A stretch of 64,000 bases of DNA from Escherichia phage EJP2, in the sequence record OQ411014.1; one strand, given 5' to 3'. Every line of letters begins with the position of its first letter. Position 1 is the stretch's first letter. A program made the position numbers and the translations under genes. Below the pieces are notes generated by a model that worked only from the letters and a program-made list of their open reading frames with translations, was not told the DNA's origin and made no database searches. Below are positions 2,497-60,541 of this stretch, one piece after another.

Positions 2497-5800
<3,304 letters not shown>

Positions 5801-5817
5801 ATATAATTATAATATAA

Positions 5818-7147
<1,330 letters not shown>

Positions 7148-7164
7148 GAGATAAATTCACTTTT

Positions 7165-7175
7165 TGTGATATAAT
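7165..7175 (+). promoter_or_regulatory. extended -10 promoter TGTGATATAAT
   Basis: Exact copy of the recurrent motif; first of two tandem promoters upstream of the SSB gene. Confidence 0.5.
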
Positions 7176-7260
7176 AGATTTACCAGCTAGTCTGGTGAAG
7201 TAAAAGACTTGAGATTGTCTCTAAAAAATCTTAAAAAATTATTGAGCATTTCGAAAAGAA

Positions 7261-7271
7261 TGTGATATAAT
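7261..7271 (+). promoter_or_regulatory. extended -10 promoter TGTGATATAAT
   Basis: Exact copy; second tandem promoter, about 95 nt upstream of the SSB start. Confidence 0.5.
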
Positions 7272-7277
7272 ATAAAC

Positions 7278-7313
7278 ATCAAGATGATACGGAAATAAAA
7301 CAACATCTTGATG
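7278..7313 (+). promoter_or_regulatory. 5' UTR hairpin (perfect 10-bp inverted repeat) in the SSB leader
   Basis: CATCAAGATG (7278-7287) pairs with CATCTTGATG (7304-7313), 16-nt loop, followed by an A-rich stretch up to the RBS. Confidence 0.4.
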
Positions 7314-7364
7314 GTAACAAAGAAACCTAATATAAACCAAGAAACAACGTAAAGGAATACAAAT

Positions 7365-8511: not shown

Positions 8512-9630
8512 ATGAAAATGACATCTGGTTTCGCTAACATCCTAAAAAGCAGTACTGCATCTGTAAAGAAAAACTCTGGCGTTAGTATGGGCTTCCATGA
8601 TCCTGACACTTGGGTTAGTACTGGTAACTTAGCATTGAACTACCGTATCAGTGGAGACTTTCGTAAAGGTATCCCACTAGGCAAAGTAACTATGTTTGCT
8701 GGTGAATCTGGTTCTGGTAAATCATTTATCGTTAGTGGAAACATTGCTCGTGAAGCACAACAACAAGGTATCTTCGTAGTACTAATTGACTCCGAAAACG
8801 CATTGGATAGTGATTGGCTTCGTGCTCTAGGTGTTGATACTTCTGAAGAAAAACTTCTAAAAATGAACATGGGTATGATTGGCGACGTTGCTAAATTCAC
8901 TTATGACTTCATTGAAGGTTATCGTAAAGAGTATGAAAACGTTCCACGTGAAGAACGTCAAAAAGTACTGTTCATCATTGACTCTATCGGTATGTTGAAT
9001 ACTGAAATTGCTAATGACCAAATGAAAGCTGGTACTATGAAAGGTGACATGGGTCACAAACCAAAACAACTAAAAGCGTACATCACTAACTGTGTGAACT
9101 CTTTAGGTGCATTGAATATGGGTATGGTCTGTGTAAACCACAGTTACGAATCCCAAGACATGTTCAACCCTGACCCAAAAATCAGTGGTGGTTCTGGTCT
9201 AGTATATGCATCCTCAATCGTAGTTGCGATGGGTAAACTAAAATTGAAAGAAGACCAAGATGGTAACAAAACATCTGATGTGAGCGGTATCCGTTCAAAA
9301 TGTAAAGTCATGAAGACTCGTTACAACAAACCATTTGAAGACGTAGAAATCAAAATCCCTTACGAGCGTGGCATGGACCCACTAAGTGGACTATTTGATA
9401 TGTTCCTCAAATACGAACTACTAACCAAATCCGGTAACCGTTATATGTATGTTGATATCGATACTGGTGAACAAATCCTCATGTTTGAAAAAGCATGGCG
9501 TCAAAATACAAACAAATCGCTTGAACTAGTAATGGAACAGTTCAATCGCCATCCTAATATCTCTCCTATCCTAGAAGATGATAAAGGTGATGAATCCTTT
9601 GGTGATGATATCCCAGACACTGAAGAGTAA
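8512..9630 (+). CDS. uvsX: RecA-family recombinase (UvsX-like)
   Basis: Walker A GESGSGKSF, RecA-like core, acidic C-terminus. Confidence 0.9.
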   Translation: MKMTSGFANILKSSTASVKKNSGVSMGFHDPDTWVSTGNLALNYRISGDFRKGIPLGKVTMFAGESGSGKSFIVSGNIAREAQQQGIFVVLIDSENALDSDWLRALGVDTSEEKLLKMNMGMIGDVAKFTYDFIEGYRKEYENVPREERQKVLFIIDSIGMLNTEIANDQMKAGTMKGDMGHKPKQLKAYITNCVNSLGALNMGMVCVNHSYESQDMFNPDPKISGGSGLVYASSIVVAMGKLKLKEDQDGNKTSDVSGIRSKCKVMKTRYNKPFEDVEIKIPYERGMDPLSGLFDMFLKYELLTKSGNRYMYVDIDTGEQILMFEKAWRQNTNKSLELVMEQFNRHPNISPILEDDKGDESFGDDIPDTEE

Positions 9631-30194: not shown

Positions 30195-30226
30195 ATGGAG
30201 AGCATAATATGTTCTCCATCTTTTTG
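30195..30226 (+). terminator. intrinsic terminator
   Basis: ATGGAGAGCAT-AAT-ATGTTCTCCAT (one G:U) then CTTTTT. Confidence 0.55.
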
Positions 30227-30236
30227 AGGGTATATA

Positions 30237-30410
30237 ATGAATAGTTCTGTGTTTAGCTTTCTACCAGATACTGTCTATCGATTTCATTTGGTTGACGGAA
30301 ACCAAATAACTGGTATCATCACTCAAGTGTTTGATGATGGAATCGAGGTTTCTAATCGACGAATCGTTCAAGACAAAATTGTTTTTTGGTACGAAGTTGA
30401 AGAATAATTG
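30237..30410 (+). CDS. hypothetical small protein, 57 aa (below the ORF-track threshold)
   Basis: ATG at 30237 with GAGGG RBS; stop TAA at 30408-30410; plus-strand gap otherwise unexplained. Confidence 0.4.
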
Positions 30411-30426
30411 AGATAAAAGATTTTTT

Positions 30427-30700
<274 letters not shown>

Positions 30701-36322: not shown

Positions 36323-36346
36323 TTTATTACACAGGAGCTATTGACA

Positions 36347-36538
36347 ATGGAAGGTCAAACTTTTTATAATCGCATTCTTGAAGACAAAGCAACGTTCGAC
36401 CGCACGATTTATGATCTTGAACTAATGATTCAAGATGCTCCTAATCCACGCATTCGTACACAAGCTGAACTCGCAAAGAATTATCTAGTACAAGTACAAC
36501 TGATTTGCGATGCACTAAAAAAACATAATAATGATTGA
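36347..36538 (+). CDS. hypothetical small protein
   Basis: Track ORF from TTG 36341; ATG at 36347 with AGGAG RBS. Confidence 0.4.
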   Translation: MEGQTFYNRILEDKATFDRTIYDLELMIQDAPNPRIRTQAELAKNYLVQVQLICDALKKHNND

Positions 36539-36642
36539 CAGTTAGAAAGAAAGACATTATTATACACACATGCACTACAAAGTGGGATGGAAAAGCTATC
36601 CCACTAAAAATTCAAAAACACTATCTGGAGATGTGAATTTAT

Positions 36643-57046: not shown

Positions 57047-57520
57047 ATGTCAGAATTGTATGAAGAGTTTATTGAAGATGATGAAGCTGGTTACAACGAA
57101 ACACTAATTCATGGTGTTCGTGCATTGGTCAGTACTGGCATTCTAAAGAACATTAAGAGTGTTCAGGATGCAGTTCAATCTGGTTGTGCTTTCGAAATGG
57201 ATATCCTAGACAAAACTAATGTCTGGAATTCATTGAAGTGCAAAACCAATTACAACTCAATCTGTGTTGATTTTCTTTTACAGCCAGGAACACCCGAAAC
57301 CCGAAAAATGCATGTTGTATTCAGGGATGGTAAATGTATATTCTTTAGCGTTAGTATTCATGATATTGTCATGGACGTTGTTTTGTGTGATGATTCATTT
57401 ATGTTCAGCTATGGTGATAACATTACATATTCACATTTTGAAGAACATGAGTTCCAGTACTCTACATGTTCTGAAGCAGTCGCTTCTTTATTAGCACTAT
57501 CTAAAACTCGTAAGGAGTAA
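57047..57520 (+). CDS. hypothetical protein
   Basis: In-frame ATG at 57047 with GAAGGA RBS; the track ORF 56858 overlaps the previous gene. Confidence 0.5.
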   Translation: MSELYEEFIEDDEAGYNETLIHGVRALVSTGILKNIKSVQDAVQSGCAFEMDILDKTNVWNSLKCKTNYNSICVDFLLQPGTPETRKMHVVFRDGKCIFFSVSIHDIVMDVVLCDDSFMFSYGDNITYSHFEEHEFQYSTCSEAVASLLALSKTRKE

Positions 57521-57523
57521 AAC

Positions 57524-57880
57524 ATGACTTGGATTTATCTTATTCTTTTATTCTCTGTAGTACTGTACCTTTTCTTTCTGAAAGGTGTTTCTGTAGTACT
57601 ACGCAAGATTGACAGTACTGAATGTGACGGTTCGATTGTGGATGTAATCATGGATTACCCACGTACAGTACTTGTGGGTTTATTTGTATTCTTGCTTATG
57701 TCCTTGTTTACTGTGCGTTATCAGATTGGTCAGATGTATGACTGTTCTGTTCGTAGTTCAGTACAGCAGGTACAAACGCAATATTCATGGTACTTTGATG
57801 TATGTCAGTTCAAGAACAAGTCCGGTGTTTGGATTGATTTCAAACAAGTTCGTGCTACACCGGATGGTGAGGAAGAGTAA
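57524..57880 (+). CDS. hypothetical small membrane protein (2 TM helices)
   Basis: Track ORF; AAGGAG RBS. Confidence 0.5.
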   Translation: MTWIYLILLFSVVLYLFFLKGVSVVLRKIDSTECDGSIVDVIMDYPRTVLVGLFVFLLMSLFTVRYQIGQMYDCSVRSSVQQVQTQYSWYFDVCQFKNKSGVWIDFKQVRATPDGEEE

Positions 57881-57886
57881 TATATA

Positions 57887-58363
57887 ATGTTCGAATTTGA
57901 AGAAGAGATTTATTTTGATCCTTCTGAAGATGGCTATACACACCTAAATGCGTATAGTAAAGGACGTACACGTTTGGGGAGGATGCTATCTAATTTTGCA
58001 TACTCCCCATTTGTGTTTGAGCCGTATGGTCACTTCAAATCGATGGAAGGATTCTGGTACTGGTACTGTACTGGTCAGAAGCATGATATTCTAAGAACCC
58101 TAAGTGGGGCGAAGGCCAAAGCTGAAGGCCAGAAGTTTCCTAGAGTGATTACATCAATGTCCGATGAAGATATCAGTACTATTCAAGATGCTATGGTAGC
58201 GAAGATAGTACAGAATAGTGAAATCAAAGATGCGTTGATGAAGTGTAATCTTGAGATAGTTCATTACTATGTATATGCAGGTAGGGTTGTACGATTAGAC
58301 CAGAAAGATGATTGGTTCGCAGAAACGCTGAACATGATTCGTGATGCATTACAGGGTAAATGA
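57887..58363 (+). CDS. NADAR/YbiA (DUF1768)-like protein, tentative
   Basis: LSNFAYSPF, SMEGFWYW, DAMVAKIVQNSEIKDALMKCN and LNMIRDAL blocks resemble the E. coli YbiA pattern from memory. Confidence 0.5.
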   Translation: MFEFEEEIYFDPSEDGYTHLNAYSKGRTRLGRMLSNFAYSPFVFEPYGHFKSMEGFWYWYCTGQKHDILRTLSGAKAKAEGQKFPRVITSMSDEDISTIQDAMVAKIVQNSEIKDALMKCNLEIVHYYVYAGRVVRLDQKDDWFAETLNMIRDALQGK

Positions 58364-58378
58364 GATGAAATGAAAAAT

Positions 58379-58389
58379 TGTGATATAAT
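58379..58389 (+). promoter_or_regulatory. extended -10 promoter TGTGATATAAT
   Basis: Exact motif copy directly after the stop at 58363; would drive transcription into the ORF-poor region. Confidence 0.5.
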
Positions 58390-58395
58390 CCTAAT

Positions 58396-58930
58396 ACAAT
58401 ACCAGTCCTTCGGGCGATACGTTCCCAGATTCGAAAAGTAGATGATGGATGAGCATGATGGTACATGCGAGTGCAGAGATACCCGTACGCGGCGTTTACG
58501 GCACGTTAAAGGAGCTTTTAGGCAGATAGGCTCCCTAGATAGGTAAACTGAAGGTCAACTTCACCATAATGCTAAGGGAGGCTCATATGAGCCACATGTA
58601 CGTTTGATCGAATAGACTGTACATGAAGTGGGCTAAGACCCCGACCGTTGCACATGACTGTGATAGAGAGAAACAGAGCAACCCGCTTTCGTTTCCTGAC
58701 CATTTTAGTACGGGTAAGTTGTATCTAAAATTCAGGAAAATTCACAATTCGATAATTCCGATGCTACCAGCGTCAGATTTAACATCCCCCCGTGGGGGAT
58801 GAAAATACCTCATCAAACCTCGTCAGGATATAAAGTACTAAAAGTGAATTGAGTTACGATAGTAACGAAAATTCTTTGACAATCGTAAGATTGGCGAATC
58901 AGAACCTTTACAACAATACAGGAATGAAGT
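58396..58930 (+). ncRNA. candidate structured non-coding RNA or long regulated leader (function unknown)
   Basis: About 535 nt with no ORF of 60 aa or more on the plus strand; about 52% GC in 58401-58500 by hand count; many short helices (CC-UUCG-GG, CATGTAC/GTACATG, CATCCCC/GGGGATG); boundaries approximate. Confidence 0.35.
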
Positions 58931-59167
58931 ATGATAACAGCAATATGTGAAATGGCTGACCAAGCCAGTGGTATAAAAGATGTTAGATTGATAGAAAACA
59001 CATTACAAGCTATGCAAGATTATGAAGACTATTGTGATGATCAGATCATGTGTGGTTTGGGTTTTTGTGTATATTTCTTTGATACCGAGAAAGATATGAA
59101 AGGCTGGTCAGAAGATGATGTATATGAGTTTATGCGTATTAACGCTCACTTGGAGATTGAAGTATGA
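58931..59167 (+). CDS. hypothetical small Cys-containing protein
   Basis: Track ORF; ATGA-type overlap with the downstream hydrolase gene. Confidence 0.45.
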   Translation: MITAICEMADQASGIKDVRLIENTLQAMQDYEDYCDDQIMCGLGFCVYFFDTEKDMKGWSEDDVYEFMRINAHLEIEV

Positions 59168-60105
59168 CTGAACTAAACAGAGCTAAAGGAAGTCTAATTG
59201 GATTAGCAGTAGGTGATGCAGTTGGAACGACTTTAGAGTTCAAAGTACGTGATGTCAAAAACATCACCGATATGGTAGGTGGTGGTCCGTTTAACCTCGA
59301 CGTAGGCCAGTGGACTGATGACACTAGTATGGCTCTTTGTTTGGGTTATGCACTTTTGCAAAATCATAATGTCAATGATATTGTTGATAGTATCAAGTGG
59401 TCACAAGTACAATTAGACAACTATGTAAAATGGTACATGAACGGTTACTGTAGTTCTAATGGATATTGCTTCGATATCGGAAGTACTACTCAAAGTGCAT
59501 TGCGTGCTTATATGAAAGATGGTGTCATTCGTAACAACGATCATTTCTTGGATTCAGGTAATGGTAGTCTTATGCGTCTTGCTCCAATTGCATTGTACTA
59601 TAACGCAAAGAATGTAGAAGAGTTCACAACTCTAGTGTATGCTGCTGACCTAAGTAGTACTACTACACATGCCAGTACTTTATGCCGTGAATCTTGTGTT
59701 GCATTTTCAGTACTACTCAATCGTGCTATCAATGGTATCGACGATAAGACTAAACTACTTGACTTCCCACCATCACTATGGAACGGTTTGGTGTCAGAGA
59801 AGTTAGTACTGGATGTGTTGAACGGTTCGTATAAGAATAAGACTCGTGAACAAATTAGTTCAAGTGGGTATGTTATTGATAGCCTAGAAGCCGCTCTATG
59901 GGCCTTCTGGAACACCGATAACTTCCGTGACGCTATCCTATTGGCTGCTAACTTAGGCAACGATGCAGACACTGTAGCGGCGATTACAGGGCAGATTGCA
60001 GGTGCTTTCTATGGTCTTGATGGTATCCCTGATGAATGGGTACAGAAGATTACAGCCACAGATGAAATCCAACAACTAGCTGAGGCTTTGTATAATGCAA
60101 ATTGA
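59164..60105 (+). CDS. ADP-ribosylglycohydrolase (DraG/ARH family)
   Basis: GSLIGLAVGDAVGTTLEF, GQWTDDTSMAL, GNGSLMRLAP and GNDADTVAAITGQIAGAFYG match ARH-family metal-binding blocks. Confidence 0.9.
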   Translation: MTELNRAKGSLIGLAVGDAVGTTLEFKVRDVKNITDMVGGGPFNLDVGQWTDDTSMALCLGYALLQNHNVNDIVDSIKWSQVQLDNYVKWYMNGYCSSNGYCFDIGSTTQSALRAYMKDGVIRNNDHFLDSGNGSLMRLAPIALYYNAKNVEEFTTLVYAADLSSTTTHASTLCRESCVAFSVLLNRAINGIDDKTKLLDFPPSLWNGLVSEKLVLDVLNGSYKNKTREQISSSGYVIDSLEAALWAFWNTDNFRDAILLAANLGNDADTVAAITGQIAGAFYGLDGIPDEWVQKITATDEIQQLAEALYNAN

Positions 60106-60541
60106 TAAGATTGTGAATGTCAAAATCGCACCAGGTCATAAAGTAACAATTGAACATACTTCGGTCGATACGCGTGAAACAATCGAAGCAGTTGTATCAT
60201 GTTCTACGCTAGATAATGGAAAAGGTGTTGCAGTCTTCAGTACTGAAGATGGTCAAGTCTTTACATGGAAACCTTCATTTTCTTCTTCACATGGGGAAGT
60301 AGTTCGAATTGATTCTGCACGTCCAGATGTTCTCGTCAATGCTTATGTAAGAGCATTCAGTACTGAAGTCCAACAGTACCGTCCGGTGCATGTAAATAGT
60401 GGTGAGTACACGTATACTGAAAAAGTATGTGAAACGCATAACTGGAGTGAAGCACTAGCACCACACGGTGATCATATATGTCTTGATTGTCGTATGGTAG
60501 TAAATGATAAATTTGAATTTGGAGTGTACTATGGGGATTAA
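60095..60541 (+). CDS. hypothetical protein
   Basis: Track ORF; overlaps the end of the hydrolase gene. Confidence 0.5.
   Translation: MQIDKIVNVKIAPGHKVTIEHTSVDTRETIEAVVSCSTLDNGKGVAVFSTEDGQVFTWKPSFSSSHGEVVRIDSARPDVLVNAYVRAFSTEVQQYRPVHVNSGEYTYTEKVCETHNWSEALAPHGDHICLDCRMVVNDKFEFGVYYGD

Follow-up and report, generated by a model that had tools for sequence, protein, structure and literature searches.

In the 64,000-nt stretch of the Escherichia phage EJP2 genome analyzed here (sequence record OQ411014.1; hereafter the window), a gap at 58364–58930 separates an open reading frame (ORF) of 158 aa (57887–58363) from one of 78 aa (58931–59167), which raises the question of whether this DNA gives rise to a structured RNA, to a leader regulating the genes downstream, or simply to a small protein. 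An earlier reading of the letters alone (the original prediction) had singled out the gap as the largest part of the window without a plausible gene, and indeed, when ORFs of 70 aa or more in any frame are considered, 58467–58930 is the longest ORF-free stretch of the window. We propose, with a probability of about 0.6, that the plus strand from 58396 to ~58900 is a member of an uncatalogued family of multi-domain RNAs of ~0.5–0.7 kb, whose product is the folded RNA itself, probably acting in trans.

A covarying RNA family of Rak2-like jumbo phages

A sensitive blastn comparison of the gap with 50,697 phage records matched 60–69 jumbo-phage records at 72–82% identity, and all of the matched phages are Rak2-like jumbo myophages of Enterobacterales with genomes of ~350 kb. 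They belong to Asteriusvirus (121Q, PBECO4), Mimasvirus (CBB, GAP32, XbC2) and Eneladusvirus (BF, Yen9-04), or are represented by Munch/7t3, Kae01 and the Erwinia phages Hallingskeid and Kaldavass. The best identity at this locus reaches ~82% among phage records, the nearest relatives being Hallingskeid and a soil-metagenome contig (Ga0164306_10000001; 366,160 bp). The homologous stretch in 11 fetched loci is a gap of 570–900 nt, mostly unannotated, with flanking genes that vary by genus. In an alignment of such homologs (A1), long invariant runs are broken by hairpins whose two arms change together.

A 16-mer taken from the core matched several sites within single jumbo contigs, a profile search with nhmmer gave 45 instances in the fetched DNA, and after a second scan the family comprised 45 unique copies; run on the window, the family profile matches 58379–58904 (E = 2e-124). 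Every one of the Rak2-like phages examined carries 2–4 diverged paralogs per genome. Phage 121Q has three, one near 247.5 kb, which is the ortholog of the window copy, one near 192.8 kb, plus a third, and one uncultivated genome of 366 kb has four. No second core copy was found in the window, where only the promoter motif recurs. Metagenome matches comprised 15 stretches, several of them on contigs of 362–371 kb, and when 2.9 million IMG/VR contigs were scanned with a stricter motif, 27 stretches were returned, 26 of which are true, all on contigs of 350–371 kb or pieces thereof, with 2–4 per contig. A loose DNA pattern scan gave mostly chance matches, which were removed with nhmmer, as was a GC-rich chance match (L180).

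Of the two options left open by the original prediction, that of a structured RNA is strongly supported by compensatory base-pair variation over 45 homologs, found throughout the gap by the comparative alignment that had been suggested as a check. RNAalifold, applied to an alignment of 30 sequences (A2), returned 65 pairs, with compensatory double changes in 33. At these positions 97.3% of the alignment cells are paired, compared with 83% in shuffled alignments and 37–45% when the partners are slid by 1–3 columns, and the covariation score is 0.391, compared with 0.141 in shuffles (reached by none of 500) and 0.04–0.08 after sliding. A model of the central domain, refined by hand and counted on 41 sequences (A3), gives 95.1% of cells paired (81.9% shuffled, ~41% slid), a covariation score of 0.384 (0.146 in shuffles, again reached by none of 500) and double changes in 29 of 60 pairs. 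Altogether, ~20 helices are supported across the gap, with invariant unpaired blocks in between, and both the 5′ hairpins P1, P2 and P7 and the 3′ hairpins Y and Z keep their pairing despite differences in sequence. The window copy folded alone has a z-score of −2.86, and the comparative evidence is far stronger.

The RNA lies on the plus strand, because its conserved G:U pairs (for example, A3 columns 98:109, 100:107 and 176:197) would be A:C mismatches on the complement, and because the promoter and the T-run are oriented accordingly. One helix overlooked by RNAalifold, GAGAG/CUUUC, closes an invariant loop of 15 nt. Two long-range pairings between invariant blocks are beyond the reach of covariation, since nothing varies in them. 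These and some other candidate pairings gained no support. GCUAAGG/CCGUUGC, predicted by RNAalifold, does not covary, and the third-paralog types, the most divergent ones, break its outer two pairs; the rival pairing of GCAAC, in the 15-nt loop, with GUUGC, drawn by inspection, shows no variation and so equally lacks support from covariation. A long-range GAUGAG/CUCGUC helix and a helix closing the 5′ end on GAAUUGAG both have, on inspection, variants without compensation.

Leader of the hydrolase operon or stand-alone gene

The second option, that of a riboswitch-like leader, is suggested by the position of the gap. The 78-aa ORF is followed by a gene for a 313-aa ADP-ribosylglycohydrolase (59164–60105; Pfam PF03747, E = 5.7e-66), and the two lie on the plus strand (58931–60105 in all, from ORF calls and Pfam). 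The gap had been described as lying between two ADP-ribose-processing genes, which holds for the downstream one; the upstream 158-aa ORF matches T4 gp30.3 only weakly, below the Pfam cut-off (E = 0.0019), so that its role in ADP-ribose processing is not established. According to the leader model, the folded 5′ region would sense NAD+, ADP-ribose or a protein and would control either read-through into the hydrolase operon or its translation. The model draws on the fact that the RNA of the window lies between a promoter and this same-strand operon, as riboswitch and attenuator leaders do, and abuts the operon without a terminator in between; that the hydrolase lies within ~0.5 kb downstream in 7 of 12 paralog-1 loci; and that most members carry, after the central domain, a terminator-like hairpin that might serve as an expression platform.

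Of the 41 aligned members, 34 have this hairpin, which is followed by TTTTTT(T) and covaries in four of its five pairs (A3 helix 10); the window copy and the third-paralog types lack it. Members that bear it would yield an RNA of ~480 nt, plus read-through forms that include the 3′ domain. No terminator-like site was found in 57500–60500, and the window copy is probably co-transcribed with the hydrolase operon, given that its internal terminator is deleted and that none precedes the operon.

The leader model is countered first by paralog 2, in which no domain is missing, neither the internal terminator nor the 3′ domain, although no same-strand gene lies downstream. It has its own TGnTATAAT promoter, lies between genes of the opposite strand and ends in a bidirectional terminator; in Serratia phage BF, for instance, the flanking minus-strand genes are endonuclease VII at one end and, at the other, a small hypothetical gene plus the baseplate hub gene. 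With its own promoter and terminator among opposite-strand genes, paralog 2 identifies the family as an RNA gene that stands alone and not as a leader. All family members, the bacterial copies described below among them, keep the TGnTATAAT element upstream. Downstream genes vary as well: in the other 5 of the 12 paralog-1 loci the hydrolase is absent among the genes annotated within ~1.3 kb downstream, where unrelated genes are found instead, in 121Q paralog 3 is followed by an unrelated gene and a DNA methyltransferase, and the neighbors of the bacterial copies are also unrelated. Moreover, no known aptamer matches the RNA, inspection of the alignment revealed no upstream segment covarying with the terminator stem and no covarying antiterminator, and the window copy has lost the terminator. 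Riboswitches known so far are far smaller than ~500–700 nt, a length several times that of an aptamer. A leader of the hydrolase operon is thus unsupported, and we consider a cis-acting leader an unlikely explanation for the family.

Full-length copies were also found, rarely, in bacteria, in mobile islands. Of 5,426 complete genomes, that of Escherichia coli LR-29-1 and one other carry the RNA. The LR-29-1 island (within the fetched locus NZ_AP027515.1, 3469971–3488234) is inserted between ffs and ybaA and contains an integrase split by IS3, the RNA with its phage-type promoter (8627–9311 of the locus), and ~650 nt of unannotated DNA after it. Its genes include DuOB, DUF488 and mSLOG-DUF4326 (Pfam), the first two of which match the PADLOC candidate defense system PDC-M45. 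In Citrobacter amalonaticus P55 the RNA (3497–4166 of the locus) directly follows a large serine recombinase of 520 aa and precedes a CI-like repressor; it thereby borders an element that resembles a prophage or satellite and is integrated next to type IV pilus genes. The best phage match of a bacterial copy, at 80.6% identity, is paralog 2 of phage BF. The bacterial copies have a 3′ domain of their own, with the shared motif GAGAGTGCTnACGnAGTnAGTACTTGATA, which replaces the phage 3′ domain. Islands and phages have in common only the RNA segment and the phage-type promoter. The E. coli and Citrobacter islands also share a 118-aa protein (82.6% DNA identity), and no copies were found on plasmids. 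The presence of the RNA in mobile islands beside candidate defense genes is compatible with a role in phage–host conflict.

Known large RNAs, rival explanations and a possible mode of action

The covariance-model scan that had been proposed as a check matched no family, and hence no known aptamer class. None of the 4227 models of Rfam 15 matched anywhere in the window at gathering thresholds. At E ≤ 10, the segment 58300–59000 gave two matches only, both at chance level (a CRISPR repeat and a small nucleolar RNA), and at E ≤ 5 nothing overlapped the RNA in eight other members. ARAGORN reported no transfer RNA (tRNA) or transfer-messenger RNA (tmRNA) in the window and none at the RNA positions of related loci. 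A hammerhead-like “GAUGAG...CGAA” was rejected, the positions after stem II being variable and no model matching. No prior description of the RNA and no transcriptome of these phages was found in the searchable literature, which does not extend to subscription journals.

We know of very few structured noncoding RNAs larger than 400 nt besides ribosomal RNA (rRNA), RNase P RNA, tmRNA and introns. Closest in kind to the RNA described here are ROOL (RF03087) and GOLLD (RF01998), which are noncoding, ~0.6–0.8 kb long, phage- or prophage-borne and rich in covarying helices and conserved junctions. ROOL is reported to match 16S rRNA in abundance, GOLLD is expressed more strongly when phage-infected cells lyse, and the two RNAs assemble into RNA-only nanocages (PMC12286853, PMC5737381). 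The present RNA, with its ~0.5–0.7 kb and ~20 covarying helices, resembles them in size, in folding and in being found in phages and bacterial integrative elements. In contrast to them, it occurs as 2–4 diverged paralogs per genome, in jumbo myophages of Enterobacterales rather than in Lactobacillales, rumen or marine elements, and not near tRNA islands, where ROOL and GOLLD often lie: the 64-kb window contains no tRNA, nor do 17 of 18 fetched related loci. Since the features of ROOL and GOLLD are absent as regards model match, tRNA islands, hosts and copy number, we treat the RNA as a new class among the large structured RNAs borne by phages. OLE and raiA-motif RNAs are likewise large and highly conserved, with invariant unpaired nucleotides that hint at binding by a protein or at tertiary assembly (PMC12286853, PMC12968392), but they are chromosomal genes of Bacillota and Actinomycetota, and their models do not match.

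An explanation that we judge as improbable as the leader holds that the locus encodes a replication-origin transcript, in which a structured pre-primer would form a persistent RNA–DNA hybrid, several copies would mark several origins, and the bacterial copies would let the phage replisome replicate satellites. The ColE1 pre-primer RNA II measures ~550 nt and forms such a persistent hybrid, and T4 has several promoter-dependent origins. The RNA resembles them in being a structured transcript of comparable length with a dedicated promoter at each copy, and its 2–4 copies are dispersed over a 350-kb genome. It also contains a conserved C-run/G-run hairpin, and the Mimasvirus copies use the “TGAAACG” promoter class, which in CBB is linked to DNA-synthesis genes (PMC5259590). 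Against this stands the conservation of sequence and structure, which goes far beyond what priming needs: neither covariation over the whole RNA nor its many invariant loops are required for hybrid formation. GC skew is unchanged at the locus, copies 1 and 3 lie within co-directional gene arrays rather than at strand switches, and the Citrobacter copy sits between integrase and repressor and not beside a replication gene. No DNA-unwinding element or iterons turned up, though no systematic search for them was made.

Somewhat less probable still is a large catalytic RNA, such as a divergent RNase P-like, intron-like or self-processing one. Invariant unpaired nucleotides held in place by covarying helices are indeed typical of ribozymes, and the segment AUGACUGU...ACAGA..ACCCG.CUU.UCG resembles a conserved region near the 3′ end of the RNase P RNA of E. 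coli. This likeness is short and local, and the pairings that covary around it, GAGAG/CUUUC and UGUGA with a distant UCACA, differ from the RNase P arrangement. RNase P RNA was rejected on these grounds, the segment that looks like conserved region V pairing locally instead of in the long-range P4 helix that links conserved regions I and V, in agreement with the absence of any match at E ≤ 10 to the RNase P, group I, group II and small-ribozyme models. Group I and group II introns were rejected as well, as the RNA has its own promoter and its copies lie between genes; those of paralog 2 that were examined are intergenic, between genes of the opposite strand, leaving no exons to splice. The presence of several copies per genome, each with a strong promoter, also differs from RNase P RNA and would suit a dosage-dependent role better than a catalytic one.

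That the product is a protein, encoded by a 6-codon ORF, a 59-codon ORF or an ORF annotated on the minus strand, is very improbable, as no ORF keeps its position, frame or strand among family members; the 6-codon ATG, which falls within P8, a covarying hairpin, is not found in Kae01 or Munch; Hallingskeid, the closest relative, does not have the 59-codon frame open, and the 59-aa product has no Pfam match; and conservation is highest in contiguous runs of 10–30 nt that show neither codon periodicity nor third-position wobble, with indels that are not multiples of three. The two plus-strand ORFs had been pointed out in the original prediction and both exist. The first, encoding MSHMYV, spans 58587–58607, its ATG being at 58587 and not at 58586, and is preceded at a distance of 5 nt by the GGGAGG noted as its Shine–Dalgarno sequence (58576–58581); the second is open at 58623–58802. 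Conservation at the amino-acid level, which would have pointed to a simple protein gene, is not observed, the frame not being conserved and the changes in the helices being compensatory. From this sequence comparison we take both small ORFs to be incidental and the RNA to be noncoding. In some GenBank records small hypothetical genes are annotated over the RNA (Hallingskeid CDS0312–0314, at 1487–1989 of the fetched locus; Yen9-04 g347/g348; 121Q gene 516, at 1477–1632 of the fetched locus); these calls fall on either strand, are not conserved between phages and are probably spurious.

We thus return to a folded RNA that probably acts in trans. In the mechanism that we propose, transcription by the sigma-70 RNA polymerase of the host would begin at TGTGATATAAT, an extended −10 promoter, and the transcript would fold into ~20 helices: first a 5′ array of hairpins, then a central domain and the three-way junction, and last a 3′ domain. 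The helices would position the invariant unpaired blocks (GAAAAYGUA, GCUAAGGGAG, CGACCGUUGCA, the loop AAACMGRGCAACCCG and CAAAYCUCGUCAR), and the resulting invariant surface would act in trans and stoichiometrically, binding a conserved host or phage macromolecule as a scaffold or decoy, possibly in counter-defense. Alternatively, within the same proposal, the RNA may assemble with itself through RNA–RNA contacts, as ROOL and GOLLD do. An amount-dependent role of this kind (scaffold, decoy or assembly), as opposed to catalytic turnover, is suggested by the multiple copies of the gene and their strong promoters. In the window, the RNA would be made as the 5′ part of a transcript running into the 78-aa ORF and the ADP-ribosylglycohydrolase gene. 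No target complementary to the 15-nt loop was found within the window.

Several points weigh against a trans-acting RNA of a new family. The transcript itself is predicted, and so are its ends, stability and abundance. Paralogs 1 and 3 are closely followed by same-strand genes, the window copy has no terminator, and these copies may therefore have a role in cis. The search for a partner found none: across the loci examined, the family has no conserved neighboring gene, the 118-aa island protein has no phage homolog, and PHROGs matches are uninformative. Finally, the lack of a match in Rfam or in the searchable literature is not proof of novelty.

A broader version of the proposal, which we put at somewhat less than even odds, is that the RNA is the founding example of a class particular to Rak2-like jumbo phages, whose invariant loops bind or mimic a central host component or form an RNA-only particle, and which serves as a takeover or counter-defense factor. 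If this is true, the bacterial copies would be either decoys against jumbo phages or anti-defense cargo of mobile elements. The capture of the RNA by islands with candidate defense genes may point to an RNA-level layer of the conflict between jumbo phages and their hosts. Earlier new classes (OLE, GOLLD, ROOL and raiA) each brought unexpected biology, most recently RNA-only nanocages. The family is also tractable, as it is present in the cultured coliphages 121Q, PBECO4, phAPEC6 and Sharanji (K-12) and in a sequenced E. coli isolate, has clear boundaries and strong covariation, and offers natural paralogs as built-in mutants. In addition, its recognition corrects the annotation of several GenBank records, in which small hypothetical genes run over the RNA.

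Architecture of the window copy and its surroundings

From its probable start to the last conserved hairpin, the structured RNA measures ~505 nt in the window (58396–58900), with covariation along its full length; all features given below are on the plus strand. The promoter was correctly placed directly upstream of 58390: the exact 11-mer TGTGATATAAT occupies 58379–58389, at the position where TGnTATAAT stands upstream of all family members, and transcription would start from it at ~58396. The GC enrichment noted at the beginning of the region is real, although the figure of ~52% for the first 100 nt is not reproduced (48% in 58390–58489, 51% in the bin 58400–58499). The GC content is 46% over 58396–58827 and 38.3% over the whole window.

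The 5′ hairpin array begins with P1 (58405–58415), which contains the predicted C(UUCG)G tetraloop as a CC-UUCG-GG hairpin at 58407–58414; its sequence is variable in the family, and the hairpin is kept as CAAGGA/TCCTTG, CTGC/GCAG, AGGC/GCCT or CATT/AATG. In P2 (58425–58448) the stem covaries (CCTATC/GATGG, CCCTT/AAGGG, TCCGAT/ATTGGA, CCGTT/AACGG) around a constant loop, GAAAA(Y)GUA, at 58433–58440. P3 (GCAUG/CAUGC, 58453–58468) corresponds to A2 columns 155–170, with 97% of cells paired, and its pair 156:169 is CG in 15 sequences, UA in 13 and AU in two. It is followed at 58471–58504 by P4 (GUGC/GCAC), which encloses P5 (CCG/CGG); these are A2 helices 3 and 4, with 99–100% of cells paired and, for P4, double changes in three of five pairs, and the window copy is missing an extra hairpin that most relatives have here. 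P6 (GGAGCU/GGCUCC, 58511–58534; A2 helix 5) shows compensatory changes in all six pairs, and P7 (UGAAG/CUUCA, 58549–58563) is kept elsewhere as GUAGG/CUAC, AAGGU/ACCUU or GAGG/CCUC.

The central domain opens with the near-invariant block GCUAAGGGAG (58571–58580), which falls in invariant columns of A1, A2 and A3 and holds the putative Shine–Dalgarno sequence of the 6-codon ORF. Within it, UAAGGGA is invariant in 41 sequences, and different hairpins then follow in different members. In the window this is P8 (GGCUCA/UGAGCC, 58580–58593; A3 helix 2), which includes the ATG of the 6-codon ORF and has double changes in all four pairs, with 98.7% of cells paired. The long hairpin P9 (58595–58625; A3 helix 3), with the conserved loop GAUCGAAUAG, has double changes in 10 of 12 pairs and 97.7% of cells paired, and P10 (UGGG/CCCG, 58629–58643; A3 helix 4) has them in three of five. 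Next comes the conserved block CGACCGUUGCA (58642–58652), in which GACCGUUGC is invariant in 41 sequences of A3. A possible partner of this block is either GC(U)AA(G)GG at 58571–58578 or, in the 15-nt loop, GCAAC at 58679–58683.

The three-way junction domain (58659–58746) is closed by P11, formed by UGUGA (58659–58663) and UCACA (58742–58746), with double changes in three of five pairs and 100% of cells paired (A3 helix 5). Inside it, P12 (58666–58690; A3 helix 6, again 100% paired) joins GAGAG (58666–58670) to CUUUC (58686–58690) and closes the 15-nt loop AAACAGAGCAACCCG (58671–58685), the consensus of which, AAACMGRGCAACCCG, varies at two positions only. In A3, the P12 pair 175:198 is AU in 34 sequences, GC in five and CG in one, and the pair 176:197 is GU in 36 and AU in four; divergent paralogs have GGAAG/CUUCC, GGGAG/CUUCC or GCGAG/CUUGC at this place. 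The other arm, P13 (UUCC/GGAA, 58693–58738; A3 helix 7), has double changes in all four pairs and is extended inward by UACGG/UUGUA (58709–58723), an inner helix that is 76% paired and belongs to paralog 1 only, paralogs 2 and 3 having a much shorter hairpin instead.

Downstream of the junction lies P14 (GAUGC/GCGUC, 58760–58774; A3 helix 9), 94% paired with one-sided CG/UG variation, and then, at 58775–58782, the site where the terminator-like hairpin and T-run of the relatives (A3 columns 305–335) are deleted in the window copy. P15 (58783–58801) pairs CAUCCCCC with GGGGGAUG; its CCCC...GGGGG is near-invariant, with 97.5% of cells paired and changes that are one-sided. The segment that follows, AAAAUACCUCAUCAAACCUCGUCAGGA (58802–58828), is conserved and apparently unpaired, CAAAYCUCGUCAR being kept in phage and bacterial copies alike. 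The 3′ domain consists of hairpin Y (58846–58874), whose inner helix GUUAC/GUAAC covaries and whose outer helix GAAUU/AAUUC was drawn by inspection, and of hairpin Z (CAAUC-GUAA-GAUUG, 58880–58893), kept as CAUUC/GAAUG, CAUAC/GUAUG, CUAAC/GUUAG or CUAC/GUAG. In relatives a further hairpin, with the loop GAACGNAGUGA, is inserted in Y and covaries across members.

The promoter motif is not confined to this locus. The exact 11-mer TGTGATATAAT occurs 11 times in the window, on the plus strand every time (7165, 7261, 12552, 17454, 23911, 30427, 32972, 39288, 46035, 58379 and 62645), and with at most one mismatch there are 13 matches, compared with 3.8 expected, a number reached in none of 100 shuffles. 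An A-rich tract often lies 5′ of these copies, and those at 7165 and 7261 form a tandem pair ~100 nt apart. The set looks like a class of strong extended −10 promoters belonging to the phage itself, probably an early class. Upstream of the RNA copies of Mimasvirus and Eneladusvirus lies a strong terminator, ATACCAGC...GCTGGTATTTTTTT (A1 columns 1–60; compare 8600–8640 of the E. coli island locus). After this terminator, ~17 nt upstream of the −10 element, comes a conserved TTTnTGRAAC/TGGGAC box, which matches the divergent “TGAAACG” promoter class of CBB (PMC5259590) and is missing from the window copy. Further stretches of the window without an ORF of at least 70 aa are found at 7126–7364 (239 nt) and 30206–30439 (234 nt), each of which contains the promoter motif, and at 36323–36638 (316 nt), which could contain another small RNA or a regulatory region.

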